Below the pieces are notes generated by a model. The model made no database searches, was not told the origin of the DNA, and worked only from the letters and a program-made list of their open reading frames with translations. From an uncultured virus (IMG/VR IMGVR_UViG_3300042691_055981) (lineage: Duplodnaviria > Heunggongvirae > Uroviricota > Caudoviricetes), in IMG/VR virus record IMGVR_UViG_3300042691_055981: a stretch of DNA of 64,000 bases; one strand, written 5' to 3'. This document shows, in pieces, positions 1-64,000 of the stretch (the first letter of the stretch is position 1; every line of letters begins with the position of its first letter). A program made the translations under genes and the position numbers.

Positions 1-525
1 AGTAAGCGGCTCTGACATAAGTAAACCAACAACATCATCATCTTTAGCCACCGTGATTCTACCATTCCAATTCACAAATACAAAATAATCTACATTGGAA
101 TGTTCCATTAATGCACTGAGGATGATCTCTTCTTGAAACAAATGAATTGAGTTTTTAAAATCATCACTCAGCTGAAAGGGCTTCATTCGTTTCTTTTCTG
201 GATAATATTCGCGGCCTGTGAACTTCGAAAGTTGATCTGCGTAGGATGAAGCAAGAGTGTCTCCCCATTTAGATACAGCACGTCGGTCTACTTGATTGAA
301 TCCTTGACCGTTATATCTCTTGACTTGGAGATTCTTAGTAATAGCCCCATCTAAGCTCTTAATGATCAGATCGTGTTTTTGCCGGTCAACCACTTCAGCC
401 ACGGAGGAAAAAGGCATATCTATCATTTTGCAAAAGTCGCTTCTAAAATCAGGATTTGTGTTAAAGATTTCCTTGATGGATTCTTCTAAGGCAAATCCTG
501 ATTTAGCAATCTCAGATCCTGTCAT
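1..525 (-). CDS. HinP1I/MspI-like type II restriction endonuclease (3' end runs off the window; absent from the ORF track)
   Basis: Manual translation from ATG 525: MTGSEIAKSGFALEESIKEIFN...KHDLIIKSLDGAITKNLQVKRYNGQGFNQVDRR...LSKFTG, open to position 1. Matches the R.HinP1I pattern as I recall it (GS.TAK.GF.NE / K.D / N.QVK / GFNQID / FTG). Preceded by cgTATATT-N5-ATG. Confidence 0.8.
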   Translation of the reverse strand, partial: MTGSEIAKSGFALEESIKEIFNTNPDFRSDFCKMIDMPFSSVAEVVDRQKHDLIIKSLDGAITKNLQVKRYNGQGFNQVDRRAVSKWGDTLASSYADQLSKFTGREYYPEKKRMKPFQLSDDFKNSIHLFQEEIILSALMEHSNVDYFVFVNWNGRITVAKDDDVVGLLMSEPLT

Positions 526-542
526 GCTTTAATATACGCTGA

Positions 543-1007
543 TTAAAGCAAGCATTTTCCTATGATTTGGCTTTTATGAATTAAACCGAAATTTTTTGAA
601 TCAAAAGAGCCAGATCTGTTATCCCCTTCAACGAAGTAATAATTCTCGGGGATTTCCTTCAAAGATATTTTTTTGTTATTTTGTATGTGAAAGTTCAAAC
701 CAGCTTTTTCTGACGCAAGCATATAACTGGCTTCTTTATTCAAATTTTCGACATACTTTTCGCCACGCATAGCTGTAATTCTTTTAACAATGATTCCGTT
801 TTTCATTTTAATTACTATAATATCGTCTAGGAAAAGTGGATTGATTTCTTTCGTAGCAAGAACAAGTTGATTGTTCTTCAGAACGGGCTCCATAGAGCCG
901 CCTTGGACAACAACAAAAAAATCATTACTGGGCTTAGACACGCACAAGAATATGCAGATAGCAAAAAACAATCTGAGAAACCGCTTGAAATTATTAGATA
1001 GTTTCAT
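543..1007 (-). CDS. lepB: Signal peptidase I (S26)
   Basis: N-terminal TM segment, GGSMEP (Ser), IVKRI (Lys), YFVEGDNRSGSFDSK. Confidence 0.9.
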   Translation of the reverse strand: MKLSNNFKRFLRLFFAICIFLCVSKPSNDFFVVVQGGSMEPVLKNNQLVLATKEINPLFLDDIIVIKMKNGIIVKRITAMRGEKYVENLNKEASYMLASEKAGLNFHIQNNKKISLKEIPENYYFVEGDNRSGSFDSKNFGLIHKSQIIGKCLL

Positions 1008-1080
1008 TGTTTGTGCCCTTATATTATTTCTCTAAGGCTGGGCACAAACCTGGGGGAATTGTTAAGACAAAGTGAAGGTG

Positions 1081-1470
1081 TGGTGGAGGCGTCGGGGTTC
1101 GAACCCGATTGTTTTCGAATCAGCGTCTGGCTTCTACACAATTAGTTTATTTGTTACCGACTTTTGATCAATAAGCACAATTAAACAAAGCTTTATGATC
1201 TTGCATCTTGATTTTTATATCATACAAGATTTGATATTTTTCACCAGATTCATTTAAAGAAAATAGAACGCTACTGGTTCGCCTTCATATTTTCCAGACC
1301 GCTTAAGCAGTCATTGTAGCCGCACCATAGCCGAAGCCAGGATTGAATCTACGGGTTTTCTTTGATGTTTTTGCATCTATTTTTTGATCTTCTTTTTAAG
1401 TGGCCGGAAGATCAACCACTTTGTGCGACCTAGAGTCTGACATTCGAAAGTCGATACCAAACTCGCCCCC
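1081..1470 (-). ncRNA. ssrA: tmRNA (one-piece)
   Basis: 5' GGGGGCG pairs with 3' CGCCTCC-ACCA with a G3:U wobble (Ala identity). T-arm TCGGG-TTCGAAC-CCCGA. Tag ORF 1374-1303 after ATAGAT: AKTSKKTRRFNPGFGYGAATMTA*. cgTATAAT upstream at 1481-1488. Confidence 0.95.
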
Positions 1471-1521
1471 ATACAACTATATTATACGATTTTAAACGCG
1501 GAAAAACCTATTATTTGCAAT

Positions 1522-1869
1522 TTAATCACAATCTTGAGAAATCCATCTTCTCATTTGTAGATGGTCAAAAGCGTTTCTCAAGATGTCAACAGATAAATCA
1601 CAATCTGACATTGATCTGAACACCTTCTCAATGGCGTATAACGCATTTCCACGCTCGACAGAAGAATAATCTGCGGAAGCAACATCCGCTGAGAAATAAG
1701 CAACAGAAAAGCCCCTAGTGCCCTCTGCCAGATACTCCATCGCTAGGGTGATTATTGCCTGTGCTTCCTTTAGCGTGTTTCTGTATGTTCCTTGGTACAT
1801 ATTTTTCAATTCGCCAGAAACAAAAAAATTCCTCAGACCATTAAGATCTGAGGAACGCAATGCAATCAA
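1522..1869 (-). CDS. Hypothetical protein
   Basis: ORF fills the gap co-directionally with its neighbours; start uncertain. Confidence 0.5.
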   Translation of the reverse strand: MIALRSSDLNGLRNFFVSGELKNMYQGTYRNTLKEAQAIITLAMEYLAEGTRGFSVAYFSADVASADYSSVERGNALYAIEKVFRSMSDCDLSVDILRNAFDHLQMRRWISQDCD

Positions 1870-1878
1870 AAGTAATCG

Positions 1879-2325
1879 TTACTTACCGAATGGGATCGAG
1901 AATCCAAGACCAAATACATAGCCCCGGTTGCCATCCTGGAGTCGGAAGTTATCAGCAAGATTAAGACCCTTCATACCTCCGAAGAGAGTGAGCTTATATC
2001 CTGCGGTGTTAACTACATCATACGAAACTCCGAGTCCCATATATGCCTGCCGACTAATATCGTTTGGATCGAAAGCACCAATCGTGTTGAGCTTAAATCG
2101 GCCTTGAGTATTAGCAAAGGTATACAGAGGGAGGCTAAAAGCCGCGTAGTTGTCGAAACCATCTCGCAGATAGAGGAAGTTCAGGCTAGTGCTCGAAACA
2201 TCAACCGAAGTGGATTGAGCCGAGAACTGTCCTTGCTTCGTCTTTGGAGTGGTTGTGGTCGTCTGGCCCAGGGCAGTGCCGAGGAGAGCCATAACAGCGA
2301 TGAGAATCATAATAATTTTCTTCAT
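1879..2325 (-). CDS. Secreted, beta-strand-rich protein (small outer-membrane beta-barrel-like)
   Basis: Sec signal peptide MKKIIMILIAVMALLGTALG, alternating hydrophobic strands, C-terminal YVFGLGFSIPF; AAGGA RBS. Confidence 0.6.
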   Translation of the reverse strand: MKKIIMILIAVMALLGTALGQTTTTTPKTKQGQFSAQSTSVDVSSTSLNFLYLRDGFDNYAAFSLPLYTFANTQGRFKLNTIGAFDPNDISRQAYMGLGVSYDVVNTAGYKLTLFGGMKGLNLADNFRLQDGNRGYVFGLGFSIPFGK

Positions 2326-2339
2326 TTGTTTTCCTTAAT

Positions 2340-2900
2340 TTATTGTACGTTAAAAACTGCAAGAAATTGCGGATCAGCATTTTTTCTTAGCATTTTTTTT
2401 GCTCGGTGAATTTTTGTGCGAACCGTACCGATTGGTAATTCCATTTCTTCTGAAATCTCCAAATACGACTTGTCATCAATTAGATGGCACATAACTTCAC
2501 GCAAATCTTCTGGCAGATTGTTTATCATCGTAAACAGTTCGCCAACACTTTCTTTCTGAGCGTAGCTTCGGGCAATATCTGCTGAATTGTCAACAATATC
2601 ATACGTTTCAGATCCTTGTGTCTGGTGATCGAAATATTCAAGAGAATACACGTCAAGCTGTCGATTCTTATTTCTGACAGCATCAATGCTTGCATTTCTG
2701 ACAATAGAGGTCATCCAGTTAGTAAATTTCTTGCTCGGATCGTAAGAATTAAAATTTCTCCAAGCCTTTAGATAGGATACTTGAAGTACATCTTCTGCGG
2801 TTTCCTTGTTCCTGACTACGCTGTAAGCGATAGAATAGAGCTTGCCTTTAGATTCGGCAAACAATCTCTCAAATCTTTCTTTTTTATTTGTTAAGTCCAT
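2340..2900 (-). CDS. ECF-type RNA polymerase sigma factor
   Basis: AEDVLQVSYLKAW, FTNWMTSIVRN (region 2); SYLEISEEMELPIGTVRTKIHRAK (region 4.2). Start moved to ATG 2900 (cGATAAT-N6-ATG). Confidence 0.9.
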   Translation of the reverse strand: MDLTNKKERFERLFAESKGKLYSIAYSVVRNKETAEDVLQVSYLKAWRNFNSYDPSKKFTNWMTSIVRNASIDAVRNKNRQLDVYSLEYFDHQTQGSETYDIVDNSADIARSYAQKESVGELFTMINNLPEDLREVMCHLIDDKSYLEISEEMELPIGTVRTKIHRAKKMLRKNADPQFLAVFNVQ

Positions 2901-3012
2901 AATTACATTATCGTGTGTTTTCATACTTTTTCTCATTAACATAGATATCACAATCTTGATCAACCTATGTTAATGTATTTAGTATACCCGAATTTCGTGA
3001 AAGATGGAAAAA

Positions 3013-3540
3013 CTAGGCAACCGCTTGGACATCTTTGATGTCAAGTTCAACAATTGTGTCACGTCCGAAGACATTAACGTAAGCTTTAAGTTTACCTTTT
3101 GTTTCATCCACTGTGTCGATTTTAGCTGAGAAATCGGCAAATGGCCCAGCGATAATAGATACAATCTCGTTTGCCTTGAAATTAGACTTAGGTGCATCAT
3201 CAACAGACTCAAGTCGTTTCAGAATTGCCTTGATTTCATTGTCGGGCATTGGGCTTGGTCTTGAACCTGATCGAACAAATCCAAGAACACCATCTGTAGC
3301 ATACACCACTTGTTCCGTTTCCTTATCCAAAACCATCTTAACGAATAGATATCCGGGGAAAACCTTCTTATCGGCAATCACTCGCTTACCGCGTCTAGTG
3401 ATATATTCTTTTTCGGTGGGAATAAGAATATCGAAGATAACATTCTGCCACATATTGCTTTTAATAGCTCGTGCCAAAAGATTGTCTCTTGCTTTTCCTT
3501 CTTTGCCAGACATTACATGTAGACTATACCAATTTTCCAT
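3013..3540 (-). CDS. nusG: Transcription elongation/antitermination factor NusG
   Basis: WYSLHVMSGKE, VFPGYLFV, GVLGFV, KOW domain IIAGPFADF...VNVFGRDTIVEL. Confidence 0.95.
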   Translation of the reverse strand: MENWYSLHVMSGKEGKARDNLLARAIKSNMWQNVIFDILIPTEKEYITRRGKRVIADKKVFPGYLFVKMVLDKETEQVVYATDGVLGFVRSGSRPSPMPDNEIKAILKRLESVDDAPKSNFKANEIVSIIAGPFADFSAKIDTVDETKGKLKAYVNVFGRDTIVELDIKDVQAVA

Positions 3541-3547
3541 AATTGTA

Positions 3548-4240
3548 TTATACGAAAAATTCTCTCATCGTTTGCAATTTCTTTTTAATTTGCTTGTCTG
3601 TGATATTTCTTCTCGTTTCTGAAAATATTCGGGCAACTTTTGAAATTGAATAACCTTCTAGCAACAAACACACAATCTGTCTATCATCTTCAGATAGATT
3701 ATCAAGAGCAATGTTGAGCGTCACTTGATCGACAATATGATTTTCGCCCGATGTCTCAACATCTAGTAATTCATCTGAAATTATAACAGAATTAGGAGCA
3801 ATTAATGAATATTTTTTCTTAAAAGATTGAATATCGTTTTCATCTTTCAGATTGTGTTTTTGCTCGAATATTCTCTTCTTCTCTTCTGTAAACTTTCCAG
3901 CAAAATAAGATTTCACTTCTCTTAAATTACTCGGGCAAAGGACAAAAGATTCAGAGTCGTTTGTGCTTAATAGATGGAAATGTACAGTAGAGTACAAAAA
4001 TGTGGAAAGCTTCGCATCTGGGTTCGGCTTAAACCTTTTAAATGCAAGAATAGCACCCACAATGGCGTTTTGATAACAATCTTCGAAGATTGTGTTAGGG
4101 TGAGTGGATTGGTACTTGTAGGCCAATTTCTTTAAAAGACCGGAATGTCTTTCAAGTAGAGTTTCGAGAGCTTCGTTGTTGCCATTTGTGTAATCAGCAA
4201 TCAATTCAGCGTCAGTTTTAAGACGTGCTGTATGTTTCAT
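3548..4240 (-). CDS. Divergent sigma-70 family factor (phage-type)
   Basis: ALETLLERH..L, FEDCYQNAIVGAILAFKRF....KLSTF (region 2); ALDNLSEDDRQIV...GYSISKVA (region 4). Confidence 0.75.
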   Translation of the reverse strand: MKHTARLKTDAELIADYTNGNNEALETLLERHSGLLKKLAYKYQSTHPNTIFEDCYQNAIVGAILAFKRFKPNPDAKLSTFLYSTVHFHLLSTNDSESFVLCPSNLREVKSYFAGKFTEEKKRIFEQKHNLKDENDIQSFKKKYSLIAPNSVIISDELLDVETSGENHIVDQVTLNIALDNLSEDDRQIVCLLLEGYSISKVARIFSETRRNITDKQIKKKLQTMREFFV

Positions 4241-4302
4241 TTTTTCCTTGCTCAGATTGAATCTTGGATTCCTGGAGCTTTTATTTATTTCTGGAAAAAT
4301 GA

Positions 4303-4929
4303 TTAATTAACCTTCACTTTGACACCAGATTGTTCTAGTTCGTGTCTCATTTCTTTTGATAGATCTGGGAACCCTGTGAGTTTTAACCCATTGTCTTCTA
4401 TGATGATTTCGTAGCTTTGATTCATTAATTCTTCTTCTTTAATGTTCTTTTGCTTACCCCAGATAAACTTTTGGTTACTGCTACTCAAGAGGGAATCATA
4501 CACTCTTAGATCTTCTCTATATCGTCCAGAAACAATAACATCAATCAGTTCAACAATCTGATGATATTCGGGGATTTTTTCAAGTTCTTCTTCTGTGTAT
4601 CCTGAATAAATTAAAATTCCTTTGGGAAATGGATTACCATTTTTATATAAATACTGAATGAAATGGAGTAAGGAACTGGGCTGGACAAAGGGTTCCCCGC
4701 CGGAGATTGTTAAACCCGCAAGATTATGTGAGAGGATTTTGTCAGCTAAAGCTTCCACGTCTATTTTATTTTTAATCTTAAATGACCAAGACTCAGGGTT
4801 GAAACAACCCGAACATCCCAGGGGGCATCCCTGAAGATGGATCATATATCTATTACCAGGCCCATTTACTGTGGTAGGGAAAGTTTCCCCCATTAGATTA
4901 AAATAATGCACAATTAATTGTACATTCAT
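4303..4929 (-). CDS. Radical SAM protein, NrdG/organic-radical activase-like
   Basis: NGPG.R, QGCPLGCSGCFNP (CxxxCxxC), TISGGEPF, YSGY, SSNQ. Confidence 0.85.
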   Translation of the reverse strand: MNVQLIVHYFNLMGETFPTTVNGPGNRYMIHLQGCPLGCSGCFNPESWSFKIKNKIDVEALADKILSHNLAGLTISGGEPFVQPSSLLHFIQYLYKNGNPFPKGILIYSGYTEEELEKIPEYHQIVELIDVIVSGRYREDLRVYDSLLSSSNQKFIWGKQKNIKEEELMNQSYEIIIEDNGLKLTGFPDLSKEMRHELEQSGVKVKVN

Positions 4930-6122
4930 CCGGCTGTTTCAAAGGAAATCATTTTAGCATATTTGTCGCGTAAAGATTTCTTTTCTTCTTCTGGCAGCTT
5001 TTTAATTTGAGCGGGAGTAAATCCTAGCTTTGTGAAAAGTTTCTTTGAGAAAATATCAGTAAAATCAGAATTCACGTCATTCAATATTTGTTGCGTTTCT
5101 CTAAAAGCATCAGCTGGATTACCACCAGTGATTGTCGGCATAATTAGGCGGTTTCCTTCTGTCCCGGCCCTACCTAGTGACCTTTGATGAGATGTAGCCA
5201 AATCAGTGGGGACAATGACCACACGAACTTGATAACCTTCAACTAAGTTCCTTACCGCTTCATTTAGGATCATATCTGGCGAACCACCGACCATAGGCAC
5301 AACAATGTCGTTACCCTTGCTGAGTGCATCCTTTTGTATTTCGGGCTTCACTACGCTAACGGCATAAATCAAAGTGTTTTGAGATCCAGCACCGCCTTGA
5401 TAACCAATAAGATCTCTCTGGTATTCATCAGGGTCAACAAGAACACCATAGTTGGTCATTCTAACTGGATTATTGGCATCCCCACCTTCGGGCTCAATAT
5501 ATCTTGATTTTCCAGCACCTGGATAACCAATAAACAAAGTCACAGTCTGAGCCCCAGATGGTGTAGCGGTTGGTATCATGCCTTTATATTCTTCAGCCAC
5601 TTTCAAAGCCCATGTCTTTTTAGCCTCATTGTAGGTATTAAGAGGATTCCCGCCTTCAGACCCAAGATTAAATTGAGAAGAAACTACACTGAGATCTTTT
5701 TCTGAATTATAAATATCTCTTGCTTTTTCTTCAATTTTCCTGATCTTAAAAGCTTCGAAATCAGGTTCTCCAGATTCTTCAAATTTCTTTTCAAGCTGAG
5801 CGTAAAATTTAGGATCTTTCTCTAAAATAATGTTTTCAATTTTTTCAAAAGAATTACTAGCTCTCCAGGATTCATAGTTTGGAAATTGCTCGTTTTGAAA
5901 ATTCGAGTATTGTCTCAATTCATTTACATAATCACCCCAGATGTTTCCTAATTCTTCTGGGTTGTTATTTGGATTAAGTTTATTAGCTTGATCAATATAT
6001 TTTTGTCTAGCTTCGCTCAGACCGTGTGGTGTTTTGGCATTATATTCTCGCATCTTGAGAATATCTTCAATCTTCTGAGCGATTCTTTGCCTTAAATTAT
6101 ACCTGCTATATCGATACCACAC
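4926..6122 (-). CDS. Zeta-toxin-like P-loop kinase with N-terminal extension
   Basis: FIGYPGAGKS Walker A, VDPDEY, later R...R.(L)I pattern; GTG start MWYRYS. Confidence 0.65.
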   Translation of the reverse strand: MWYRYSRYNLRQRIAQKIEDILKMREYNAKTPHGLSEARQKYIDQANKLNPNNNPEELGNIWGDYVNELRQYSNFQNEQFPNYESWRASNSFEKIENIILEKDPKFYAQLEKKFEESGEPDFEAFKIRKIEEKARDIYNSEKDLSVVSSQFNLGSEGGNPLNTYNEAKKTWALKVAEEYKGMIPTATPSGAQTVTLFIGYPGAGKSRYIEPEGGDANNPVRMTNYGVLVDPDEYQRDLIGYQGGAGSQNTLIYAVSVVKPEIQKDALSKGNDIVVPMVGGSPDMILNEAVRNLVEGYQVRVVIVPTDLATSHQRSLGRAGTEGNRLIMPTITGGNPADAFRETQQILNDVNSDFTDIFSKKLFTKLGFTPAQIKKLPEEEKKSLRDKYAKMISFETAG

Positions 6123-6169
6123 AATCTGATTTTAAGAATTATGAGGCGAGATTCCTTTGTTTATCGTGT

Positions 6170-6844
6170 TTAAGTTGTTCTCTTATCAACACCTGTCTTA
6201 TTAGAAATCAATTTTGCGGTGAATCTTTTATATTCCGGCGAATTTCCCTGTGACATCCAAGGGTAACGGGCGGAGAGCTCATTAACAATATCAAGAAACT
6301 TTCTTTCAGGATTTTGCTGCTTCTTGTATTTGTATTGATTGTATGCTTCATTTACAGCTGGATCAAGCGTGGGGTTTAATCTATCTGTGTCGTAGATATC
6401 GTTGATATCTTTGTAGGGATCTTGTTGGAAATTTTTTGCCAAGGGATCAAAGTCCATAATTTTCGTATTTGGACCTTGAGGGAGATTTCCTTTTTGACCT
6501 TGCATTATAATATTAGTACCAAAGGGGATTGGTTTATTAATATCAACAACACCTACGGCTTTCAAATACGCTGCAACATCATTTGCAAATCTTGGGTTTG
6601 TTTTTAAAAGCTCGTTGTAAAGTTGGTCTGGTGTTTGCCTCTTTCCTATTGCATTTTGTATAGCTTGTTGAACTCTGTATGGGTCTGTTGTTAATTGCCC
6701 CGCGTCTTGTCTTTTATTATAATCTTCTACTCTTTGCTGAGCCATTCGAGCCATCGACTCAGTAACCTGATTTGCTTCTTTTTCAAAGCCATTAAGGTCA
6801 AGTTCATTAGCAATAGATGCCATTTTGATCAACAGTGCTTTCAT
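6170..6844 (-). CDS. Hypothetical phage protein with N-terminal 'IANELD..G...EA' motif
   Basis: Long ORF; AGG at -34. Confidence 0.6.
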   Translation of the reverse strand: MKALLIKMASIANELDLNGFEKEANQVTESMARMAQQRVEDYNKRQDAGQLTTDPYRVQQAIQNAIGKRQTPDQLYNELLKTNPRFANDVAAYLKAVGVVDINKPIPFGTNIIMQGQKGNLPQGPNTKIMDFDPLAKNFQQDPYKDINDIYDTDRLNPTLDPAVNEAYNQYKYKKQQNPERKFLDIVNELSARYPWMSQGNSPEYKRFTAKLISNKTGVDKRTT

Positions 6845-6896
6845 ACTATTAATTTACACAATCTGAAAAAGATTTCCTTTTATGTACAATTTTTTC

Positions 6897-7109
6897 ATGG
6901 ACATCGTGGTTAGTGTTATCAAGGACAATGAGAACGCTGAATATTGCGGGCAACTGTCAATAACTCAAATTAATTCCGAGTTTCTTTGTAAATATCACCT
7001 GGCAAACCAGACACAATCTGGAAAGGTGCTGACGGGAGATTTTAAAAGTAATTTTCAAAGCCTTTCTTCAATCATAGGGAAGCTTGAAGAAATTGTCAAC
7101 TCAAACTAG
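6897..7109 (+). CDS. Hypothetical protein
   Basis: TGTACAAT-N6-ATG places the start at 6897. Confidence 0.55.
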   Translation: MDIVVSVIKDNENAEYCGQLSITQINSEFLCKYHLANQTQSGKVLTGDFKSNFQSLSSIIGKLEEIVNSN

Positions 7110-7790
7110 GCACCATTTCTCCACACAATCTGGATAAAACTGAACAGATGTGAAGTTAGACTTAAGAATTAATAGCAGAGCTTTAAAATCCACAATTGAC
7201 AAAGAAGAATGGTAATTAGTGATAAAAGACTTTAAATCAAAGGCCTGGATTTGTTTTTGTTCAAAAAACTCCTGAAGATTATCTATTATCTCTGAAACAT
7301 AATGGCAATCACCAAATGTAGCTTCAAAATCAATTTTCTCCTTTAGATAGAGAAAGTGAGAATTAGGAACAAGGCTGGAGATGAAACCATATTTCTTAAC
7401 AAAATCTTGATTTAATTCAACTGATATGTTGTCATCGTAAATATACTTATCTTTATAATAACTTGGTTTTGACATTTTCACTTCTACATTTCCGTGATTG
7501 AATTTATCCAATCTAAATAATGTAGATTTGTTTTTTGACATTAGATCTAATCCAGATTGTGTATTGAGGTCACGATTAAAAACGCAAACAAAATCTGATA
7601 AATCAACAGATGTGCAATTATCGGGGAACCCACCAACGACATCAAACTGAGAAAGATCGAAATAATTTAGAGAGATATTATTTGGGATAATTGCACAAGA
7701 TTGTTTCGTGAGGGTTTTTAGGCAAATAAGCTCTTGCAGATTTAAATAAATCTCAAAAACATCACCAGAAACAATCCGATGATAAATCAT
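7101..7790 (-). CDS. Hypothetical protein
   Basis: 229 aa ORF coupled to the thyX stop (TAATG overlap). Confidence 0.6.
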   Translation of the reverse strand: MIYHRIVSGDVFEIYLNLQELICLKTLTKQSCAIIPNNISLNYFDLSQFDVVGGFPDNCTSVDLSDFVCVFNRDLNTQSGLDLMSKNKSTLFRLDKFNHGNVEVKMSKPSYYKDKYIYDDNISVELNQDFVKKYGFISSLVPNSHFLYLKEKIDFEATFGDCHYVSEIIDNLQEFFEQKQIQAFDLKSFITNYHSSLSIVDFKALLLILKSNFTSVQFYPDCVEKWCLV

Positions 7791-8662
7791 TAATTACCCT
7801 GGTATTCGCCAGGGAATGTTTTCCTTAGCTGAGTGAACCCAACAAAATTACCCGAAATAATTTCTTCTGATTCAGCTCTGGCAATATGCTCGAAAGGTGA
7901 CCAATGGCCCGTTCCACTTCCGTTGGTGAGCCTATCATAGAGCTCAAGGTCTTTATCTATACTCCTAACTCCATCATGAGTTAGATATGAAACGCGAGCA
8001 CAACGGGCCACACTGATGGATTTTCTTGTCTCTAAATCTAACCCAAGTTCGTCTGGTTGTATGTATGGGATATGCCATTCGCCATCAGCAAGCTCCTTGG
8101 GTGTAGAATTATTGTATGCCTCTTTCATCATATAAGCAAGGTGTTGTATTTCTGGCTGAGCATCAGGATGGCACCTCAAAGCAAAAAAGTTGTCATAATC
8201 AGTGGCTGTAATAATAACCGTAATCCACATCCAGGGCTCCAAAACTCTATTAACCACCTGCTTGTGTAAGTCAAGCTTGATAGCTTCAGGGTCGTCATCA
8301 GAACAAACTTCTCCTGAGTTTTTATTCACGGAAACAAGGCCGCCTAATTTCTGTGCGGCGACAATCATCTGCCTTGAGGCTTCCAACCAGATTTTTTCAG
8401 CGAGAAAAGTGAGTGCGGTTTCCTCACCCGCTTGCATACCAGATTTCGCAGTTCCCCAATAAACGGGCATCACAGGATTTATTGCAATATTTTCAATCAT
8501 TTTTTTGATTGGGATAGCCCTTGAACTTGCAGAATTTCTTGATTTAGTTCTGTGAGTCATAAGCTCTGAGTGAACAAACCGAGGATATCTTACCTCCATT
8601 GTGGTACATCGCTTGCCGGATGGGGCGACAGAATCTTCAATAATCTTCACATAATAACTCAT
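7790..8662 (-). CDS. thyX: FAD-dependent thymidylate synthase (phage-type ThyX)
   Basis: RFVHSELMTHR, SRNSASSRAIP, FFALRCHPDAQPEI, ARCARVSY, HWSPFEH. Confidence 0.85.
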   Translation of the reverse strand: MSYYVKIIEDSVAPSGKRCTTMEVRYPRFVHSELMTHRTKSRNSASSRAIPIKKMIENIAINPVMPVYWGTAKSGMQAGEETALTFLAEKIWLEASRQMIVAAQKLGGLVSVNKNSGEVCSDDDPEAIKLDLHKQVVNRVLEPWMWITVIITATDYDNFFALRCHPDAQPEIQHLAYMMKEAYNNSTPKELADGEWHIPYIQPDELGLDLETRKSISVARCARVSYLTHDGVRSIDKDLELYDRLTNGSGTGHWSPFEHIARAESEEIISGNFVGFTQLRKTFPGEYQGN

Positions 8663-8707
8663 ACTAATATTATACGGGGAAAATGATTAAAGCTGCAAAT
8701 TATAAAC

Positions 8708-8737
8708 AAAAAAACCACGCTAAAAAAGCGTGGTTTT
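8708..8737 (-). terminator. Rho-independent terminator
   Basis: AAAACCACGC-N7-GCGTGGTTTT hairpin followed by a U-run on the minus strand. Confidence 0.75.
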
Positions 8738-8757
8738 AAACAATGCCATCAATTCAA

Positions 8758-9261: not shown

Positions 9262-9277
9262 AGTTGATTTATACAAA

Positions 9278-13103: not shown

Positions 13104-13150
13104 GCCCTTTAATTTTTCCATCTCTCACAATCTGAAGGTATAATGTATAT

Positions 13151-46223: not shown

Positions 46224-46278
46224 ATATATTTTTTTCTTAATTGAATAATTCGAACCTGTTTAATCCGTATAATAAAGC

Positions 46279-55162: not shown

Positions 55163-55374
55163 GCAAGAAAGTAGAACTCATCATCGAAATAGATGATTCA
55201 GGAAAGATCACTGTCACGCCAAAGGGAACTAGCGGAAAAGAGTGTTTAGACTTAATGTCATTTCTGGATAAAATAGAAGGGCTTAATGTGATCGAAACTA
55301 CGCCTAACGAAGATATGATTGCGAAATCTAAAACATCTTTGGTGAGAAAAATCAATAACACTTTAAAGGATTGA
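55159..55374 (+). CDS. DUF2997 protein
   Basis: IEIDDSGKI.....G..G..C; coupled to DUF1257 as is typical. Confidence 0.7.
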   Translation: MSKKVELIIEIDDSGKITVTPKGTSGKECLDLMSFLDKIEGLNVIETTPNEDMIAKSKTSLVRKINNTLKD

Positions 55375-55377
55375 TGA

Positions 55378-56142: not shown

Positions 56143-56151
56143 AAATCTCCG

Positions 56152-59100
56152 TTAAGCTTCTTGTGCTATTAATTCTACAGTAAAGTTTTGGTGGAAAGTA
56201 TTTACGCCAATGAAATTAACAGAAAGTTTATCCCCTGAAGAGCATGTGGTGTAGCCCACAGCAAACGAAGTGGAATTGCTTTCATATGTCGCGGCACCGA
56301 TTATATTTAAGTTAGACTGAAGTATGCTAGTTCCCACAAATCGTCCAGAACCTGTGCTCTTGGCGATGTTAATGGTTGTTATACCCGCGTAAGGAGTTTC
56401 TACGCGAAGATTTACTCTTCTGAAATTAAATGTTACAATTCCTATTCCGTTGATTGGGTCTTGAGGAACAATAAAGACAGCTGAATCAATTCCAACTTGG
56501 GTGGGTGTGAAGGCTGTCATGAGAGGGATTACAAGGCTTCTCTTGATTGGTGCCCAGGTTACACCTGTACCAGTAGAAGTTAAAACCTGGCTGATAATTC
56601 CAATGGGGCCACCAGATGAATTGTTTCTGTCAAAGATTTCCCCGTTAAATCTTGCTCCAGCCTGAACATGCAGCCCAGCTGTAGGGGCTACAGTTCCTAC
56701 GCCTAAATTCCCGTTCCGATAAACAAACGTGGATGCTCCTGTAATGGTTGTTGTTCCAATGCCATATGCAACTTGATCCGCACCAAGATTGTAATATATT
56801 GCATCAATAGTTGTCCAGGCAATACCAGAGTTTGTGGAGGTAAGCAGCTGACCTGTATTACCGCTTCCTACGGAATTATCATAAAGCCGACCAGATATGT
56901 TTATGTTTCGAACTGTTGAGAAACCGCTAACATTAAACGTGCCGAAAACATCAAGATTGGAGAGGGGGTTATCTGTGTTGACACCCAGAAGTCCATTATT
57001 TAACACAAAAGTGCTAACGCCTTGAATTGTATTTGCTGACGCACCGAAAGGAATTTGATTTACACTGATTGATCCACCGATAGTTCCGCCACCAGGACCG
57101 CCACCTGCTGAAGCAGACCAAAGAACAGCTGTACCGATGGATGTAAGTACAGAATTGGCTAAGCCAGGTCTGCCAGCAAGATCTAATAAAAAGCTGGATA
57201 TGGATGCACCAGCTAAAGTGGAAATGCCAGTGACCCTCAGCTGTGTTAGTGTGCCGACAGACGTAATTCCAGAGTAAGTTCCACTGACTACCGCCGAAGG
57301 AACTGTTCCAGATGCAAGATTAGATGCATTAAGATTGGTTAAGCTTGTGCCTGGGCCGAAGTAACCAAGAGAAGTTACCACCCCGATTACATTAAGCTGA
57401 GTTAGATTACCTACAGATGTAATTCCGGAATAGTTTCCAGCTACTCTAGCCGAAGGCACTGTTCCAGATGCTAAGCTAGATGCGTTCAGATTGGTTAAGT
57501 TTGTACCTGGGCCGTAAAACCCAAGAGAACTACTAAATCCATTAACGGACATTCCTAATCCAATCGTAATTACAGAACCATTATCGATTATATTTGAAGT
57601 GGTAAGCGAATTAGGGTTTCCAAACTTAGCTATGTAATTAGTTAAACCATTTATTACTGTAGCTATACCGATTGTGTTAGCTGATGTCCATAGTATTCCA
57701 GAGCTGGTCGAAACCAGAACCTGATTGGCCAATCCAGATGTATTAGATGAATCGAAAATATTTCCACGGAATCTTACATTACCAGAAACATCAAAGGCTT
57801 GCGTAGGAATAGATGTGTAGATTCCAACAGACCCAATCCCGGTGATAACAAAATAAGGACTGCCATTGGTGATTCGATCAATTTCCAGAAGATTTGCTGT
57901 TTGAGATGGCTGTCCGGCTAGATAAAATCCAGCGTGGCTTGCATTAAGAGTTTCTACATGTAATCTGGATAGAGGATTTAATGTACCAATTCCTAAATCG
58001 GTTCTTGTTGCATTTGTTATTCCTCCCCATGCACCAGCATTAGCTCTTGCTGTCTTTATGGAAACACCAATTGCAATCTGATAATTGCCATCAGTCACTC
58101 CTACACCTCTTCCAATAGCTATATTATCTGAGCCAGTAAAAGGATTGGATGCATTATAGACAGAGTTGGCATTAGCTCCGATAAAGGTGTTTCCTTCAGC
58201 TACCGAACCTTCTTGGTACCACCCGGCTTGGAAGCCGATAAGAGTGTTATTTTGTGACGCCGACAGGGTGTAAGTACCAAGCCCAGCATTAAAGCCAATA
58301 ACCACAGAATTTCCGTGAGTGGCATACCTGGAGGCGTTATTACCTATCACCACCATCGCGGTATGATCTGTCACCGGATTATCTTTTGTCCCCGAGAAAG
58401 CGTCAGCCCCAATAACAACAGAATTTCCGCTGTCAATGTCTAGAGTATTATTTACATTATAGTATGCGTCAGCACCAATAACTACTTTTGCAGAAGCCGG
58501 TCTGAAGTTTAATAGTTCGCTATGTGCATTATTGCCTATAATAACATGTGTGCTAATATCTTCGAATTGTTGATTGGTTTGATTACTGGAAGCGTTACTT
58601 CCTATCAATACGCCTTTGGTGGGCGGGTTATTAGAGTTAATATCAAATCCAATTACCACACTATAATCAGAATCACCACCACCAGTGCTCGCCCCGAATC
58701 CAATAATTGTATTAGTGAAGGAGTTTCCGGCACCTATATAGATATTGTCAACATAAATTTCGTTTGTAGTTTCAAGAGATCCGCGAGGACTGTCTGTTCC
58801 AATTCCTAATGAGCCATTATTAAATACAAAGGTTCCAATACCTTGAATATTGTTTGGAGAAGCACCAAACGCAATCTGAGTTGCACTAATTGATCCGCCG
58901 ATAGTACCACCACCAGCACCTCCTGCAGATGCAGACCACAGGACTGCTGTGCCGATGGATGTAAGTACGGAATTAGCTAAACCAGGTCTGCCAGCAAGAT
59001 CTAATAAAAAGCTGGATATTGATGCACCAGCTAAAGTAGATATACCAGTAACCCTTAATTGAGTTAGTGTACCTACAGATGTAATTCCAGAGTAGTTACC

Positions 59101-62100
59101 GCTCACTCTATCTGAAGGAACAGTTCCAGACGCAAGATTAGATGCATTAAGATTGGTTAAGTTTGTACCTGGACCGGTATATCCTAAGGATGTGACCACG
59201 CCTGTTACATTAACTACACCAAATACATCAAGGTTAGCTACAGGATTGTTGGTATTTACACCCAGGAGTCCATTTATAAGAACAAAGGTTCCAACACCCT
59301 GAATATTGTTTGGAGAAGCACCAAACGCAATCTGAGTTGCACTGATCGATCCGCCTATAGTGCCACCGCCAGGGGTTCCAGATCCTGGAGCCGCCCATAA
59401 AACTCCACCAGATCCAGTGGATGTCAAAACTGAATTAGCTAACCCTTGATTGTTGGAAGAGTCCCAAACCCCTCCACGCAATCTTACATTACCTGAAACA
59501 TCAAAAGCTTGAGTAGGTATAGATGTGTATACACCAATTGATCCAATTCCAGTGACAACTAGATATGGAAGGCCGTTTGTCGTCTGATCAAACCTGAGAA
59601 GATTGGCGGTTTGCGAGGGTTGCCCAGCAAGATAAAATCCACGGGCGGATGCAGATAGTGTCTCTACATGCAGTTTACTATTTGGTATAGTGGTGCCTAT
59701 ACCAAAATTGCCAGCAGGCACTGTGATAGTACCGTTAGTAAATTCTAAATTCCTTGTCCCAGTTGGGTTTCTGAAAATTGTAAAGCCGTCACGGGCGAGC
59801 AATGTAAAGTCGTTAGCGGTGCCTGATCTACCCCCAACCGCAACAAATCCAAGGCTACCATCTTGGTAAAGGCGATTTTGGCCAGCAGCAAAACTACCGC
59901 CGTCAATTCGGACGTAGCCGCCAAAAGAGCCAAATCCGGCGGCGAGCAAACTTCCGTTTGTCAGTTGGAAATCAGATGTCCCCGTGGGATTGGAGAATAC
60001 AATATTGCCTGAACCCGATGTGAATGTCAGATCATTTCCAGAGCCCGCCCGACCAGAAAAAACCAATCCTAGCGAGCTGTCGTAATACATTCTGGCTTTA
60101 TTGGAAAGGAAGGAGTCTTGACCCACCTCTATTCCGCCGCCCAAGGCCAATCTGCTCGTTGCAGCGTCAAAAGTCAGGTTGGTAGATGCCCCCAGCGTAC
60201 CACCTGAATTAAACTGCACCCAAGTGTTTCTACCAGCCGCAGGTACAGATGACCAAGAAATTCCTGTACCTGTGGAAATTAGAACAGATCTAGCAAGCCC
60301 AACATTGTTTACTGAATCATAAATGGAACCAGATACTGCTAAATTGTTAACAGTAGAAAATCCAGTGACTCTCAATTGAGTGAGTGTACCTACAGATGTA
60401 ATTCCAGAGTAAAAACCACTAACTGTAGCCGAAGGCACTGTTCCAGATTCAAGGTTGGATGCATTAAGGTTAGTTAGGTTGGTGCCAGGTCCTGTGTAAC
60501 CAAGTGATGTTACCACGCCTGTTACATTTACTACACCAAATACATCAAGATTAGCCAAGGGAGCGTTGGTATTAACACCCAGCAATCCATTTATAAGAAC
60601 GAGGGTTCCAATGCCCTGTATATTGTTAGGAGAAGCACCAAACGCAATCTGAGTTGCACTAATCGATCCACCGATAGTACCACCCCCACCTCCACCTCCA
60701 CCTGCGGAAGCAGACCAAAGAACAGCCGTGCCTATGGATGTAAGCACAGAATTAGCTAAACCAGGTCTACCAGCAAGATCTAATAAAAAGCTAGATATGG
60801 AGGCTCCAGCTAAAGTAGATATTCCTGTGACCCTTAGCTGAGTTAGTGTTCCAACAGATGTAATTCCAGAATAAGTTCCACTCAATACAACTGAAGGCAC
60901 AGTTCCAGATGCGAGATTGGATGCATTAAGATTGGTTAAGTTTGTTCCATCTCCTGTATATCCTGTGGCAGATGCAATACCGATTACATTAAGATTAGTA
61001 AGATTGCCGACAGATGTAATTCCAGAGTAGCTGCCGCTCACTCTAGCCGAAGGCACTGTTCCAGATGCAATATTAGATGCATTCAGGTTGGTTAAATTTG
61101 TGCCTGGGCCGTAGAATCCAAGTGAACTACTAAATCCATTTACAGACATCCCAAGGCCAATTGTGATTACAGAGCCATTGTCGATTATATTTGAAGTGGT
61201 AAGGGAATTGGGGCTACCAAATTTAGCTAAGTAATTAGCTACACCATTGATTCCTGTAACTATTCCGATTGTGTTAGCTGATGTCCACAGGATTCCAGAA
61301 CTGGTTGAAACCAGAATCTGATTAGCTGTTCCAGATGTATTAGATGAATCGAAGATATTTCCACGGAATCTTACATTACCAAGAACATCAAAAGCTTGAG
61401 TAGGGACAGATGTGTAGATTCCAACAGAACCAATTCCGTTAATAACAAAATAAGGATTACCATTGATAATTTGATCAATCCTGAAGAGGTTTGCCGTTTG
61501 TGAGGGTTGTCCGGCCAGATAAAATCCAGCGTTAGCTGCATTGAGGGTTGCAACATGCAATCTTGCCAATGGATTTAATGTACCAATACCCAGATCGGTT
61601 CTTGTTGCATTTGTTATTCCGCCCCAAGCACCCGCATTGGATCTAGCTGTGCGGGTATTGCCGTCAATTCCGATAGCAATTTGGTAATTGCCATTAGTTA
61701 CTCCCGCTCCAGCCCCAATTGCTATATTATTTTCGCCAGTGAATGGGTTAGTGGGTGAATAGCTTACGTTTACACTATTGCCAATGAATGTATTATTGTT
61801 AGAATTAGACATGTATGGGCCAGCATATGCACCAACTATTGTATTATTACTGTTTGATGATAAAGTAAATGTCCCAAACCCTGCAACATTGCCTATTACA
61901 ACCGAATTACCATGACTTACGGCAAAAACAGCACCATAACCAATAACTACAGAGTTTCCTCCTCCGCTGTCTTGCATCGGAGTAGCAGGAGTGCCACTGT
62001 AAGCATCATGCCCGATTACTGTTGATGTACTAAATACATCGTTGTTCTCAACATAGCGATAAGCATTATTACCGATAATAAGCATGCCAGAGTTAGTGGA

Positions 62101-63012
62101 GCCATTATAATTATCGCTTAATGCATTGTTTCCGATGACAATCGTGGAGCCAGGATTTTCAATACCAAAAGTATTATTAGTATTAGCTGAATCACCGATA
62201 TAAACACCCGGCATTATAGTATCATTCGCGGTTCCCTGGTTTACATTTCTTCCAATTATAGTGGCCCTTTCAACAAATGCAAACCCAAAGCTAGTAGCAC
62301 CAAAACCGATAATTGTATTAGTGAAGGAGTTCCCAGCACCAATATAGATTTTGTCTACATAAATTTCTTCTGTAGTTTCAAAGGATCCACGAGGATTTGT
62401 TAATCCAATACCCAACGAGCCATTTCTGAAGACAAAAGTGCTGATGCCCTGGATAGTGTTTGATGATGAGCCGAACGCCACTTGGTTTGAAGAAATTGAT
62501 CCACCTATGCTTGCAGATGAAGCAGGAATCCATTCTACACCATTTGTGGTAGAAGATAATATTTGACCAGCCGTTCCGGGGCTGAAATTTCTGTCATAAA
62601 ATGGCCCGCTTAAATTTAATGAACTAAATGTAGATAATCCTACGGAGAAGATTTGAGAAAACGATGCGATTCCTGAAACAGTGATTGTATTTGACACAAT
62701 CTTGCCAGAGAGCGGGAAGAATTGAATGGCGGGAAAGCTGGAAATCCCAGTGAAAGAACCAGCATAGTCTTGGTACGGCCCAACAAATTTTCTTTGATTA
62801 TTGAGTGTTCCAATTCCGCCAAGAAGAATTACTGGCTCTGAATTTTGTTCCCAGTTATAGATTGTGGAACGTAAATCATCAACATTTGGGGTAAAAACAA
62901 AGGTGCCGACACCAGATTCATACCATTTTAAATCAATCTGGGAAACAGATGTGCTAAGCCCACTGTAAGAACCCGGAGTAATCAATATGCTTTTATTAGT
63001 CTGTGCTGCCAT
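56152..63012 (-). CDS. Giant repetitive tail fibre / adhesin (2286 aa)
   Basis: Recurrent G.LGIGT..P...L.V, LTNLNASNLASGTVPS and (V/I)IG beta-helix repeats. Confidence 0.8.
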   Translation of the reverse strand: MAAQTNKSILITPGSYSGLSTSVSQIDLKWYESGVGTFVFTPNVDDLRSTIYNWEQNSEPVILLGGIGTLNNQRKFVGPYQDYAGSFTGISSFPAIQFFPLSGKIVSNTITVSGIASFSQIFSVGLSTFSSLNLSGPFYDRNFSPGTAGQILSSTTNGVEWIPASSASIGGSISSNQVAFGSSSNTIQGISTFVFRNGSLGIGLTNPRGSFETTEEIYVDKIYIGAGNSFTNTIIGFGATSFGFAFVERATIIGRNVNQGTANDTIMPGVYIGDSANTNNTFGIENPGSTIVIGNNALSDNYNGSTNSGMLIIGNNAYRYVENNDVFSTSTVIGHDAYSGTPATPMQDSGGGNSVVIGYGAVFAVSHGNSVVIGNVAGFGTFTLSSNSNNTIVGAYAGPYMSNSNNNTFIGNSVNVSYSPTNPFTGENNIAIGAGAGVTNGNYQIAIGIDGNTRTARSNAGAWGGITNATRTDLGIGTLNPLARLHVATLNAANAGFYLAGQPSQTANLFRIDQIINGNPYFVINGIGSVGIYTSVPTQAFDVLGNVRFRGNIFDSSNTSGTANQILVSTSSGILWTSANTIGIVTGINGVANYLAKFGSPNSLTTSNIIDNGSVITIGLGMSVNGFSSSLGFYGPGTNLTNLNASNIASGTVPSARVSGSYSGITSVGNLTNLNVIGIASATGYTGDGTNLTNLNASNLASGTVPSVVLSGTYSGITSVGTLTQLRVTGISTLAGASISSFLLDLAGRPGLANSVLTSIGTAVLWSASAGGGGGGGGTIGGSISATQIAFGASPNNIQGIGTLVLINGLLGVNTNAPLANLDVFGVVNVTGVVTSLGYTGPGTNLTNLNASNLESGTVPSATVSGFYSGITSVGTLTQLRVTGFSTVNNLAVSGSIYDSVNNVGLARSVLISTGTGISWSSVPAAGRNTWVQFNSGGTLGASTNLTFDAATSRLALGGGIEVGQDSFLSNKARMYYDSSLGLVFSGRAGSGNDLTFTSGSGNIVFSNPTGTSDFQLTNGSLLAAGFGSFGGYVRIDGGSFAAGQNRLYQDGSLGFVAVGGRSGTANDFTLLARDGFTIFRNPTGTRNLEFTNGTITVPAGNFGIGTTIPNSKLHVETLSASARGFYLAGQPSQTANLLRFDQTTNGLPYLVVTGIGSIGVYTSIPTQAFDVSGNVRLRGGVWDSSNNQGLANSVLTSTGSGGVLWAAPGSGTPGGGTIGGSISATQIAFGASPNNIQGVGTFVLINGLLGVNTNNPVANLDVFGVVNVTGVVTSLGYTGPGTNLTNLNASNLASGTVPSDRVSGNYSGITSVGTLTQLRVTGISTLAGASISSFLLDLAGRPGLANSVLTSIGTAVLWSASAGGAGGGTIGGSISATQIAFGASPNNIQGIGTFVFNNGSLGIGTDSPRGSLETTNEIYVDNIYIGAGNSFTNTIIGFGASTGGGDSDYSVVIGFDINSNNPPTKGVLIGSNASSNQTNQQFEDISTHVIIGNNAHSELLNFRPASAKVVIGADAYYNVNNTLDIDSGNSVVIGADAFSGTKDNPVTDHTAMVVIGNNASRYATHGNSVVIGFNAGLGTYTLSASQNNTLIGFQAGWYQEGSVAEGNTFIGANANSVYNASNPFTGSDNIAIGRGVGVTDGNYQIAIGVSIKTARANAGAWGGITNATRTDLGIGTLNPLSRLHVETLNASHAGFYLAGQPSQTANLLEIDRITNGSPYFVITGIGSVGIYTSIPTQAFDVSGNVRFRGNIFDSSNTSGLANQVLVSTSSGILWTSANTIGIATVINGLTNYIAKFGNPNSLTTSNIIDNGSVITIGLGMSVNGFSSSLGFYGPGTNLTNLNASSLASGTVPSARVAGNYSGITSVGNLTQLNVIGVVTSLGYFGPGTSLTNLNASNLASGTVPSAVVSGTYSGITSVGTLTQLRVTGISTLAGASISSFLLDLAGRPGLANSVLTSIGTAVLWSASAGGGPGGGTIGGSISVNQIPFGASANTIQGVSTFVLNNGLLGVNTDNPLSNLDVFGTFNVSGFSTVRNINISGRLYDNSVGSGNTGQLLTSTNSGIAWTTIDAIYYNLGADQVAYGIGTTTITGASTFVYRNGNLGVGTVAPTAGLHVQAGARFNGEIFDRNNSSGGPIGIISQVLTSTGTGVTWAPIKRSLVIPLMTAFTPTQVGIDSAVFIVPQDPINGIGIVTFNFRRVNLRVETPYAGITTINIAKSTGSGRFVGTSILQSNLNIIGAATYESNSTSFAVGYTTCSSGDKLSVNFIGVNTFHQNFTVELIAQEA
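57050..62430 (-). repeat. Internal direct repeats of the tail-fibre gene
   Basis: An ~1.7 kb module occurs twice (~62430-60650 and ~58830-57050). The GITSVGTLTQLRVTGISTLAGASISSFLLDLAGRPGLANSVLTSIGTAVLWSASAGG block occurs three times (~57100, ~58920, ~60700). Boundaries approximate. Confidence 0.85.
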
Positions 63013-63369
63013 TTAAAATATCCCGTCAGTGATAACCTTAATGTCTCCTGAAACCGCCACCTTCGTGGATGTTGGGTCGTCTTGAATTTGGAACTTATAT
63101 TTGTACTCCCCAACCTGTGTTAAAACATAATTTATATAATAAACTCCGGCCTCTTCTTCTTCAACTGCGGGAGTGGCGGAGTAAACCCCTGTGCCATTAT
63201 TAAAGCTAGACTGCGTAATGTTGGGGTCGTTTGAAATTATTTGGTTATTTGGTGTAAGGATATACCAATAGATAACGCGGGAGCTGCTCAATCCTACAAG
63301 ATTATTGTTGCTATCCAAAACTTCAAACGAAATTTTAGAATTCGTATTTCTGTAAAATAAGTTCGCCAC
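63013..63369 (-). CDS. Ig-like virion protein
   Basis: GVYYINY.....GEY.Y.F; AGG at -34. Confidence 0.55.
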   Translation of the reverse strand: MANLFYRNTNSKISFEVLDSNNNLVGLSSSRVIYWYILTPNNQIISNDPNITQSSFNNGTGVYSATPAVEEEEAGVYYINYVLTQVGEYKYKFQIQDDPTSTKVAVSGDIKVITDGIF

Positions 63370-63393
63370 GTTATTATATTTGAATTATTGATT

Positions 63394-63606
63394 CTAAAAA
63401 CCTGTTTGCGGATTGGTGCTAATTGTCTTTATCGCCTCAACTTTTGAACGAACAAATCTAGGCTCTACTCCGGTAACAATCGTGCCATTATCTGGTATAA
63501 TTGCAACAACCGCAGTTCTGCCCTTTCGAAATGAATAGGATACCTGACCTGATACTACAAAAAAATCTGAAAAGGTCCCGCCGGCAAATGTTAAATCGCC
63601 AAACAT
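63394..63606 (-). CDS. Small virion-module protein
   Basis: MFG...FA..TFS N-terminus, common in tail modules; abuts the upstream stop. Confidence 0.5.
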   Translation of the reverse strand: MFGDLTFAGGTFSDFFVVSGQVSYSFRKGRTAVVAIIPDNGTIVTGVEPRFVRSKVEAIKTISTNPQTGF

Positions 63607-64000
63607 TTATGACTCCAATGAGAATTTTGTATCAGTTCTTGATCCTATAATTAAATAATTATACTCAATTGGCTTTAAAGATGGAATTAAATTCTTGATT
63701 ATAAACGAATTTTTCATTTTCACAATCTTAAAAGGCATAAAGGAGTTAGATGTAACGGCGATTGTAGGATTTTCTGAAATTTTTAAGAAATAATCGGGCA
63801 AAATAATCTCCGCACACCATCTTGTTTTTATAATTCCCCGCTGATACATTCCGTATTCTGGGCCTTCAAGACAACCATGTATTAAGAATTTGTTTTTCAA
63901 GATTGGGTGTTTGATTTTGAAAGCCTTAGCAGTGGCCTGAATTACACCATTCACGAATAATTCCGGGGTATTTCCGGGGTAAAATTTTAAATCTGGGTCG
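63607..64000 (-). CDS. C-terminal part of a tail-fibre-type protein (5' end outside the window)
   Basis: K.F.I.HP......L.HGCLEGPE..Y.RG...I.LPDY C-terminal domain; frame open to the window edge. Confidence 0.7.
   Translation of the reverse strand, partial: DPDLKFYPGNTPELFVNGVIQATAKAFKIKHPILKNKFLIHGCLEGPEYGMYQRGIIKTRWCAEIILPDYFLKISENPTIAVTSNSFMPFKIVKMKNSFIIKNLIPSLKPIEYNYLIIGSRTDTKFSLES

Follow-up and report, generated by a model that had tools for sequence, protein, structure and literature searches.

The nuclease gene at the left edge of the window

The DNA analyzed here, referred to as the window, is a stretch of 64,000 bases (37.8% G+C) from an uncultured virus of the Caudoviricetes (IMG/VR record IMGVR_UViG_3300042691_055981). 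Coding sequence takes up about 94% of it, and it appears to come from a large phage. A gene for a restriction endonuclease of the HinP1I family runs across its left edge, and the window holds no copy of the tetramer GCGC. HinP1I recognizes G^CGC, according to excerpts of the HhaI structure paper (PMC7026639). The gene is found at the following positions:

1..525, minus strand: HinP1I-family endonuclease gene, first 175 codons; the open reading frame (ORF) runs off the left edge and its last 63 codons lie beyond it
L001:748-1464: the full nuclease gene, 238 amino acids; its product, P0001, is 100% identical to the window ORF

A reading of the window made from the letters alone (the sequence-only reading) had pointed to an unlisted minus-strand ORF from position 525 and had called its product HinP1I-like on the strength of several short motifs. 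The ORF with these motifs was found as described, and the complete protein matches HinP1I by Pfam, by profile and by fold. Among 5.8 billion proteins, we found P0001 and three related clusters at 68-79% identity; the four clusters (P0001-P0004) hold 23 member sequences, and the protein occurs on contigs of up to 142,633 bases; P0004 is carried by one of 135,448 bases. P0005 (5,647 amino acids, 58 stretches) is a repeat protein and was rejected as a false positive.

The Pfam model R-HINP1I (PF11463) matches P0001 at 28.9 bits (E 9.7e-7) against a cut-off of 25. All four full proteins exceed this cut-off (28.9, 32.4, 28.8 and 33.3 bits); the 175-residue window fragment alone fails it with 13.4 bits. 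NCBIfam has no model for the HinP1I family. A profile built from the four sequences matches R.HinP1I (1YNM) at E 3.1e-8, with residues 3-211 aligned to residues 7-240. An AlphaFold (AF2) model calculated from a 58-sequence alignment has a mean predicted local distance difference test score (pLDDT) of 93.7 and a predicted template modeling score (pTM) of 0.89. Foldseek placed this model closest to the HinP1I-DNA complex (2FKC_A; E 3e-12, template modeling (TM) scores 0.74/0.71), followed by apo HinP1I (1YNM; E 6.6e-11) and MspI (1SA3; E 8.6e-5, TM 0.50). There were no matches at E <= 0.001 beyond HinP1I structures and MspI. Sequence, profile and fold thus all place the nuclease in the HinP1I family, and the predicted structure has the monomeric PD-(D/E)XK fold of the HinP1I/MspI type.

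The identity between the phage nuclease and HinP1I is 22-25%. In the profile alignment, E14, D52, Q67 and K69 correspond to E18, D62, Q81 and K83 of HinP1I, which we take to be its catalytic residues. E14, D52 and K69 are invariant in all 58 family members, and position 67 is Q in 46 and S in 12. The residues invariant in the family (G10, E14, K50, D52, K69, K194, G195 and G196) are all present in P0001. The base contacts of HinP1I are given as Q93, K96 and K223 in the portions of the HhaI structure paper available to us (PMC7026639). They align with Q78, R81 and K194 of the phage protein. Of the 58 members, 36 have R and 22 have K at this second contact (position 81); the change from K to R is conservative. 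In the phage clade and its nearest neighbors (22 sequences), the key residues are kept, save for one K at R81 and one N-terminally truncated protein without E14. Judged from these sequences, the enzyme would be catalytically active and specific for GCGC. The purge of this word and the M.HhaI-like partner methylases of relatives (both described below) lend indirect support to an enzyme that would cut G^CGC and be blocked by methylated cytosine.

Comparison of the nuclease gene with its copy in a related phage locus (L003) gives a proportion of nonsynonymous differences (pN) of 0.17; that of synonymous differences (pS) has reached saturation at 0.81. Purifying selection therefore maintains the gene.

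Absence of GCGC from the window

The exact count of GCGC in the window is zero, in coding and non-coding DNA alike. The constituent trinucleotides are common (GCG 352, CGC 313), as are the other continuations of GCG (GCGA 136, GCGG 121, GCGT 95) and comparable words (CGCG 36, CCGG 82, GGCC 88). The sequence-only reading, made by eye, had counted over 200 GCG, none of them followed by C, had found these other words present and had expected tens of GCGC sites; all of this agrees with the counts. From base composition, 81.9 GCGC are expected, from dinucleotides 74.9 and from a second-order Markov model 68.6 (z = -10.5). The Poisson chance of finding none at 68.6 expected is about 1e-30.

Among all 256 tetramers of the window, GCGC is the most depleted, far from the near-expected frequency that would have spoken against a purge. 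The next-lowest palindromes are ACGT, GGCC and CCGG, with observed/expected ratios of 0.53, 0.65 and 0.75. The six-base palindromes show no further depletion except in those that contain GCGC. As GCGC is the sole purged word and the next-lowest palindromes are only mildly low, the purge is word-specific.

The loss can be followed at the level of codons. The window encodes 224 dipeptides of Ser, Gly, Cys or Arg followed by Ala, and the codon pair NGC|GCN is used in none of them (41.8 expected). After a codon with a final G, CGC is never used (NNG|CGC, 5.9 expected), and GCG never precedes a codon starting with C (GCG|CNN, 16.7 expected). GCGC is avoided through synonymous codon choice in all three reading-frame classes. 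Selection therefore acts on the DNA word and not on protein sequence or base composition. Population variants were also inspected: the 39 that fall in positions 1-885, among 40 listed of about 870 in other runs, create no GCGC (0.3 expected), a comparison without power, since 0.8% of single changes create GCGC.

Absence of an adjacent partner methylase

A complete Type II restriction-modification (R-M) system has a methyltransferase next to the nuclease. The phage gene has none. Pfam finds no DNA methyltransferase among the 71 window ORFs of at least 100 amino acids. A C5-methylase profile built from relatives finds none in six frames of the window, L001, L002 and L003 (best E 0.17); the same profile recovers the methylase in three held-out contigs (E 1e-194, 1e-89 and 5e-14). 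That no DNA methyltransferase is visible in the window had been noted from the letters, and a C5-methylase just past the left edge had been named as the thing to look for; there is no methylase in the 2.2 kb that L001 adds there. The contig measures at least 142,633 bases, of which the window and this extension make up about 66 kb.

The relatives of the nuclease in metagenomes and bacterial metagenome-assembled genomes (MAGs) present a different picture. All 12 have a C5-methylase beside the nuclease, nine by Pfam and three, the held-out contigs, by the profile. In the phage, the corresponding position, where relatives carry the C5-methylase (PF00145), is occupied by another gene:

543..1007, minus strand: S26 signal-peptidase gene (Pfam Peptidase_S26, E 5.8e-18), the immediate upstream neighbor of the nuclease

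Two partner methylases taken from different branches of the tree are full-length homologs of the GCGC methylase M.HhaI (E 4e-124 and 6e-58, covering residues 12-317 of the chain). M.HaeIII aligns with no more than the catalytic half of these two proteins. In a quick tree, the phage clade forms one branch (Shimodaira-Hasegawa-like approximate likelihood ratio test 95) with P0006 as its sister, and members paired with a methylase lie on both sides. It is likely that the phage lineage kept only the nuclease of a complete GCGC R-M pair.

HinP1I-family genes in other viruses

A scan of IMG/VR with a nine-sequence alignment gave 22 viral loci with HinP1I-family proteins, many of them in giant-virus MAGs (L033-L054). 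A C5-methylase lies within 140 bases of the nuclease match in 19 of the 22. As a positive control we used a complete phage record in which the nuclease occurs with two C5-methylases. The 10 methylase-bearing loci in which at least five GCGC are expected, some of them near-duplicates, all keep at least one site (observed/expected 1/5.8, 2/10.9, 8/9.3, 4/8.1, 44/69.7, 43/64.6, 19/12.6 twice, 19/23.3 and 6/21.3). The remaining three loci are:

L050:9986-10744: nuclease gene on a giant-virus contig, intact, 252 amino acids, 37.3 bits
L044:8481-9905: nuclease gene (277.7 bits) and, 7 bases after it, a staphylococcal-nuclease homolog, on an unrelated phage contig
L049:1524-2504: HinP1I-family gene on a giant-virus contig

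L050 has no methylase of any Pfam type among its 19 ORFs, and it has 0 GCGC against 10.7 expected. L044 has no C5-methylase and 0 GCGC against 7.1 expected; AGCT is also missing from it (0 against 11.5). L049 shows no methylase in the examined DNA, and its count (0 against 0.2) is uninformative. With near-duplicates merged, GCGC is lost completely in three of three lineages without a C5-methylase and in none of eight with one (Fisher p about 0.006, for our own grouping and not corrected for phylogeny). In this set of viruses, the presence of a C5-methylase goes with the keeping of GCGC, and its absence with the loss of GCGC.

Two further observations were made on these contigs. One of the giant-virus contigs L050 and L049 has the capsid, VLTF3 and A32 genes of nucleocytoplasmic large DNA viruses. 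Some methylase-bearing loci lack other palindromes: ACGT occurs 0-1 times against 14-16 expected in L033, L035 and L040, and L041-L043 have neither CTAG (12-32 expected) nor GATC (20 expected).

The relative L003 and control phages

L003 is collinear with positions 1-6,850 of the window at 67-73% nucleotide identity. It carries the nuclease (70% protein identity) and no methylase, and has 0 GCGC against 7.8 expected in 11.8 kb. With synonymous differences between these phages at saturation, the lack of GCGC in both is maintained and not merely inherited. L003 is the only relative seen, and it has the nuclease gene.

Closer relatives were looked for in several ways. The window has no megablast match among GenBank phages, and the nuclease and a 728-residue ORF have no tblastn match there. 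Its ThyX and GroEL match GenBank phages only at a general level of 43-47%. Scans of IMG/VR with an exact 42-mer, the nuclease clade, the 398-residue P-loop protein and the NusG-like protein gave no match. The phage lineage is present in 23 public runs from 16 studies labeled freshwater, lake water or similar.

The controls were IMG/VR contigs matched by GroEL only, with no other gene in common with the window. In six unrelated viral control loci, the observed and expected numbers of GCGC are 2/10.7, 50/48.3, 2/9.6, 39/35.4, 23/21.8 and 39/37.3. Two control phages, the large contigs G001 (L022-L028) and G002 (L029-L032), have neither a HinP1I-like gene nor a C5-methylase in their whole records. 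They purge other words strongly and incompletely, about 10-fold (GGCC 7/101, CGCG 4/48.5, TCGA 9/104).

Probable restriction without modification

We consider it probable that this phage practices restriction without modification, with an active GCGC nuclease against which it protects itself by the loss of sites. This is the interpretation offered by the sequence-only reading, and each part of it that could be tested (the family, the absence of GCGC and the lack of a methylase in about 66 kb) has held. The phage gene would code for a HinP1I-family Type IIP enzyme that is active, monomeric and specific for GCGC. The enzyme would derive from a complete R-M pair whose methylase is gone. The phage genome would be immune to its own enzyme, since it has no GCGC and is kept in this state by selection through synonymous codons. 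During infection, the nuclease would be expressed and would cut unmethylated DNA with GCGC sites, that is, the host chromosome, co-infecting phages and plasmids. Such cutting may shut down the host, feed the nucleotide salvage of the phage (ThyX, a deoxynucleoside monophosphate (dNMP) kinase, a ribonucleotide reductase activase) and exclude rivals.

A wider version of this reading is that we see a recurrent viral weapon. A virus would take the nuclease, drop the methylase and erase the target words from its own genome, and this would have happened independently in the freshwater phage clade, in L050 and probably in L044. The enzyme would then shred host or rival DNA and filter incoming DNA. 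We give this generalization an even chance. If it is true, an acquired gene that bears GCGC would be lethal to the virus, so that the enzyme would act as a permanent filter on incoming DNA.

Several observations weigh against restriction without modification. The Pfam score of P0001 is barely over the cut-off. A single-sequence search of the 175-residue fragment against PDB sequences missed HinP1I and gave chance matches only (Atg8, E 0.68 or worse). At one of the base contacts the residue is not that of HinP1I (R81 for K96), though R is the majority residue in the family, and GCGC specificity is inferred. The contig has at least 142,633 bases, about 66 kb of which were covered, and the rest could encode a methylase. 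The control phages G001 and G002, which have no such nuclease, are themselves partly depleted of GCGC (25/65.7 and 11/26.8), as are some methylase-bearing loci (2/10.9 and 6/21.3). Another locus, L053, has a methylase and yet 0 GCGC against 4.6 expected. L044 is not cleanly solitary: it has two methylase genes of the N6/N4 type, one of them 320 bases upstream of the nuclease. Finally, Staphylococcus phage K is said to have lost GATC completely under pressure from its host, without a nuclease of its own.

This last case leads to the best of the alternatives. The sites may have been lost to escape host GCGC systems of the HhaI/HinP1I type. The nuclease would then have been captured later and tolerated since the sites were already gone, to be used against rivals or to remain nearly neutral. 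Restriction-site avoidance is reportedly widespread in phages, and the partial depletion of GCGC in unrelated phages and in methylase-bearing loci indicates that GCGC-directed pressure exists in nature. We still regard a host-driven purge as unlikely. The purged word is exactly the site of the family to which the phage's own enzyme belongs. The gene is under purifying selection, and its catalytic residues are kept across the 22 sequences apart from the truncated one. In three unrelated virus lineages, complete loss tracks the absence of the virus's own C5-methylase and not the habitat. The two control phages keep residual sites even of the words they avoid most. A self-imposed purge thus appears likelier than a purely host-imposed one because the purged word matches the phage's own enzyme, because the loss is absolute whereas the control phages keep residual sites, and because the pairing recurs in unrelated viruses without a methylase. 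On the main point the two explanations agree: the phage would be safe from its own enzyme through the absence of sites. An active GCGC cutter, with protection solely by lacking sites, is the best-supported reading and is compatible with either history of the purge.

A second alternative is a split R-M system, in which a cognate GCGC methylase, encoded in the remaining part of the genome (more than half), protects the DNA by methylation. Less than half of the contig was covered, and excerpts of one paper describe separated R-M genes in prokaryotes (PMC3488263), which counts in its favor. A working methylase, however, would make the loss of every site needless, and the informative methylase-bearing viral loci all keep GCGC. 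In all 12 cellular or metagenome loci and in 19 of the 22 viral ones, the methylase is adjacent and not distant. No C5-methylase is found in the 64 kb or in L001-L003. This arrangement seems to us very improbable.

Least probable of all, by a little, is that the protein is no longer a GCGC endonuclease (being inactive, a nickase with another role or altered in specificity) and that the absence of GCGC is unrelated to it: the low identity to HinP1I, the marginal Pfam score and the lack of an RNA contig over the gene in one library (no cover, which is not silence) would fit, but the family-invariant residues are kept under strong purifying selection, a chance coincidence of the purged word with the family site is unlikely (1/16 palindromic tetramers, or 1/256), and the purged word is the family site again in L050 and L044.

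Comparison with known systems

The closest characterized protein is R.HinP1I from Haemophilus influenzae P1, a Type IIP enzyme that cuts G^CGC (1YNM, 2FKC). The phage nuclease resembles it in Pfam family, profile match, fold and length (238 and 247 amino acids). The catalytic E/D/QxK residues align, as do the base-contact Q and K (the latter in the QRKGGD loop), and the word purged from the window is the HinP1I site. The phage protein differs in a hairpin between D and QxK that is four residues shorter, and in the R in place of K96. Its gene has no partner methylase and stands in a site-free carrier genome. The nucleases of the HinP1I-family R-M pairs (L004-L015 and L033-L054) are homologous (tblastn E 4e-9 to 1e-6). 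In those pairs there is an adjacent C5-methylase and GCGC is kept, whereas the phage clade has neither methylase nor sites.

Endonucleases II and IV of phage T4 degrade host DNA, and T4 spares its own DNA by a modified base. The role proposed here is similar in that host DNA would be cut early and phage DNA exempted. In contrast to T4, the phage would be exempt by lacking the target word, and the nuclease would be a classical restriction enzyme. As in other cases of phage restriction-site avoidance, a short palindrome has been removed from the genome. In the known cases the enzyme is owned by the host; here the matching enzyme is phage-encoded and the loss is complete.

Solitary restriction endonuclease genes have been noted in phages before. 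Oliveira et al. (2014) listed 12 among 831 phages (PMC4176335); the parts of that paper that we could consult draw no link to the loss of cognate sites and propose no function. In the open-access literature, we found no account of a phage that has a solitary Type II enzyme and whose genome lacks the site of this enzyme.

Textbooks present restriction enzymes as a defense of bacteria, in which a methylase is required to keep the cell from cutting its own DNA. The case described here looks like the reverse use: a virus with the nuclease alone, for which the absence of a word, and not a chemical mark, is the signal that separates self from non-self. If this is true, some complete palindrome purges in viral genomes would be self-inflicted and not imposed by hosts. 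The specificity of uncharacterized solitary nucleases could then be predicted from the word that is missing in the carrier genome. There would be an added mechanism for the breakdown of host DNA and for exclusion between phages, as well as a strong barrier to gene flow into such viruses.

Surroundings and expression of the nuclease gene

Downstream of the nuclease, in the 2.2 kb of L001 past the left edge, lie a 98-residue ORF, a nucleotidyltransferase gene, a 203-residue ORF and ClpP. Upstream, a short box precedes the start codon, and similar boxes occur elsewhere in the window:

531..537, minus strand: GTATATT, a -10-like box that lies 5 nt ahead of the start codon of the nuclease
3547-3553, minus strand: GTAYAWT box
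8669-8675, minus strand: GTAYAWT box
13138-13144, plus strand: GTAYAWT box
46267-46273, plus strand: GTAYAWT box

GTAYAWT (the GTATAAT/GTACAAT class) occurs 55 times in the window against 33.3 expected, a number that none of 100 shuffles reached. It stands 5-8 nt ahead of the start codon in 13 of 70 ORFs. Shine-Dalgarno-like words precede only 11 of the 70 starts. The GTAYAWT boxes look like -10 boxes of messenger RNAs that are leaderless or have very short leaders. The box before the nuclease suggests that this gene may have its own promoter. The one RNA library with matches covers only positions 1090-2288 of the window and none of the nuclease gene, which is a lack of cover and not evidence of silence.

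Other features of the window

By Pfam and PHROG, the window also encodes the following:

nucleotide and DNA metabolism: ThyX (phrog_85), a DprA-like protein (phrog_768), a dNMP kinase and a DenV-type glycosylase
other functions: an NrdG-like radical-SAM (S-adenosylmethionine) activase, GroEL (phrog_5725), two sigma factors, NusG and TnpB

A transfer-messenger RNA (tmRNA) is encoded at 1081-1470 on the minus strand. It was identified by ARAGORN and by Rfam (RF00023, 102 bits, E 1e-38, full model length), and a 364-nt contig of the RNA library matches positions 1090-1453 of it without a difference.

The segment 12296-13145, about 0.8 kb with two small ORFs, is covered about 24 times as deeply as its flanks in three DNA runs. 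In one run, a contig joins 12335 to 13113 (the empty site), and a back-joint connects 13145 to 12296. This segment is probably a small mobile element. It adjoins the TnpB gene at 10934-12232.

At positions 20900-44033, about 25 genes for sugar nucleotides and glycans form a 23-kb block, which is unusually large for a phage. It includes a GDP-mannose dehydratase, two UDP-glucose dehydrogenase-like proteins, two DegT aminotransferases, GT11 and GT61 transferases, FkbM methyltransferases and a GNAT. At 56152-63012 on the minus strand lies an ORF of 2,286 amino acids with no Pfam or PHROG match. A further run of genes on the minus strand, at 4303-8662, consists of the radical-SAM activase (NrdG/QueE-like), a 398-residue P-loop kinase (Zeta-toxin/AAA_33-like), two unknown ORFs and ThyX. 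These genes may serve plain nucleotide metabolism or a pathway of base modification.

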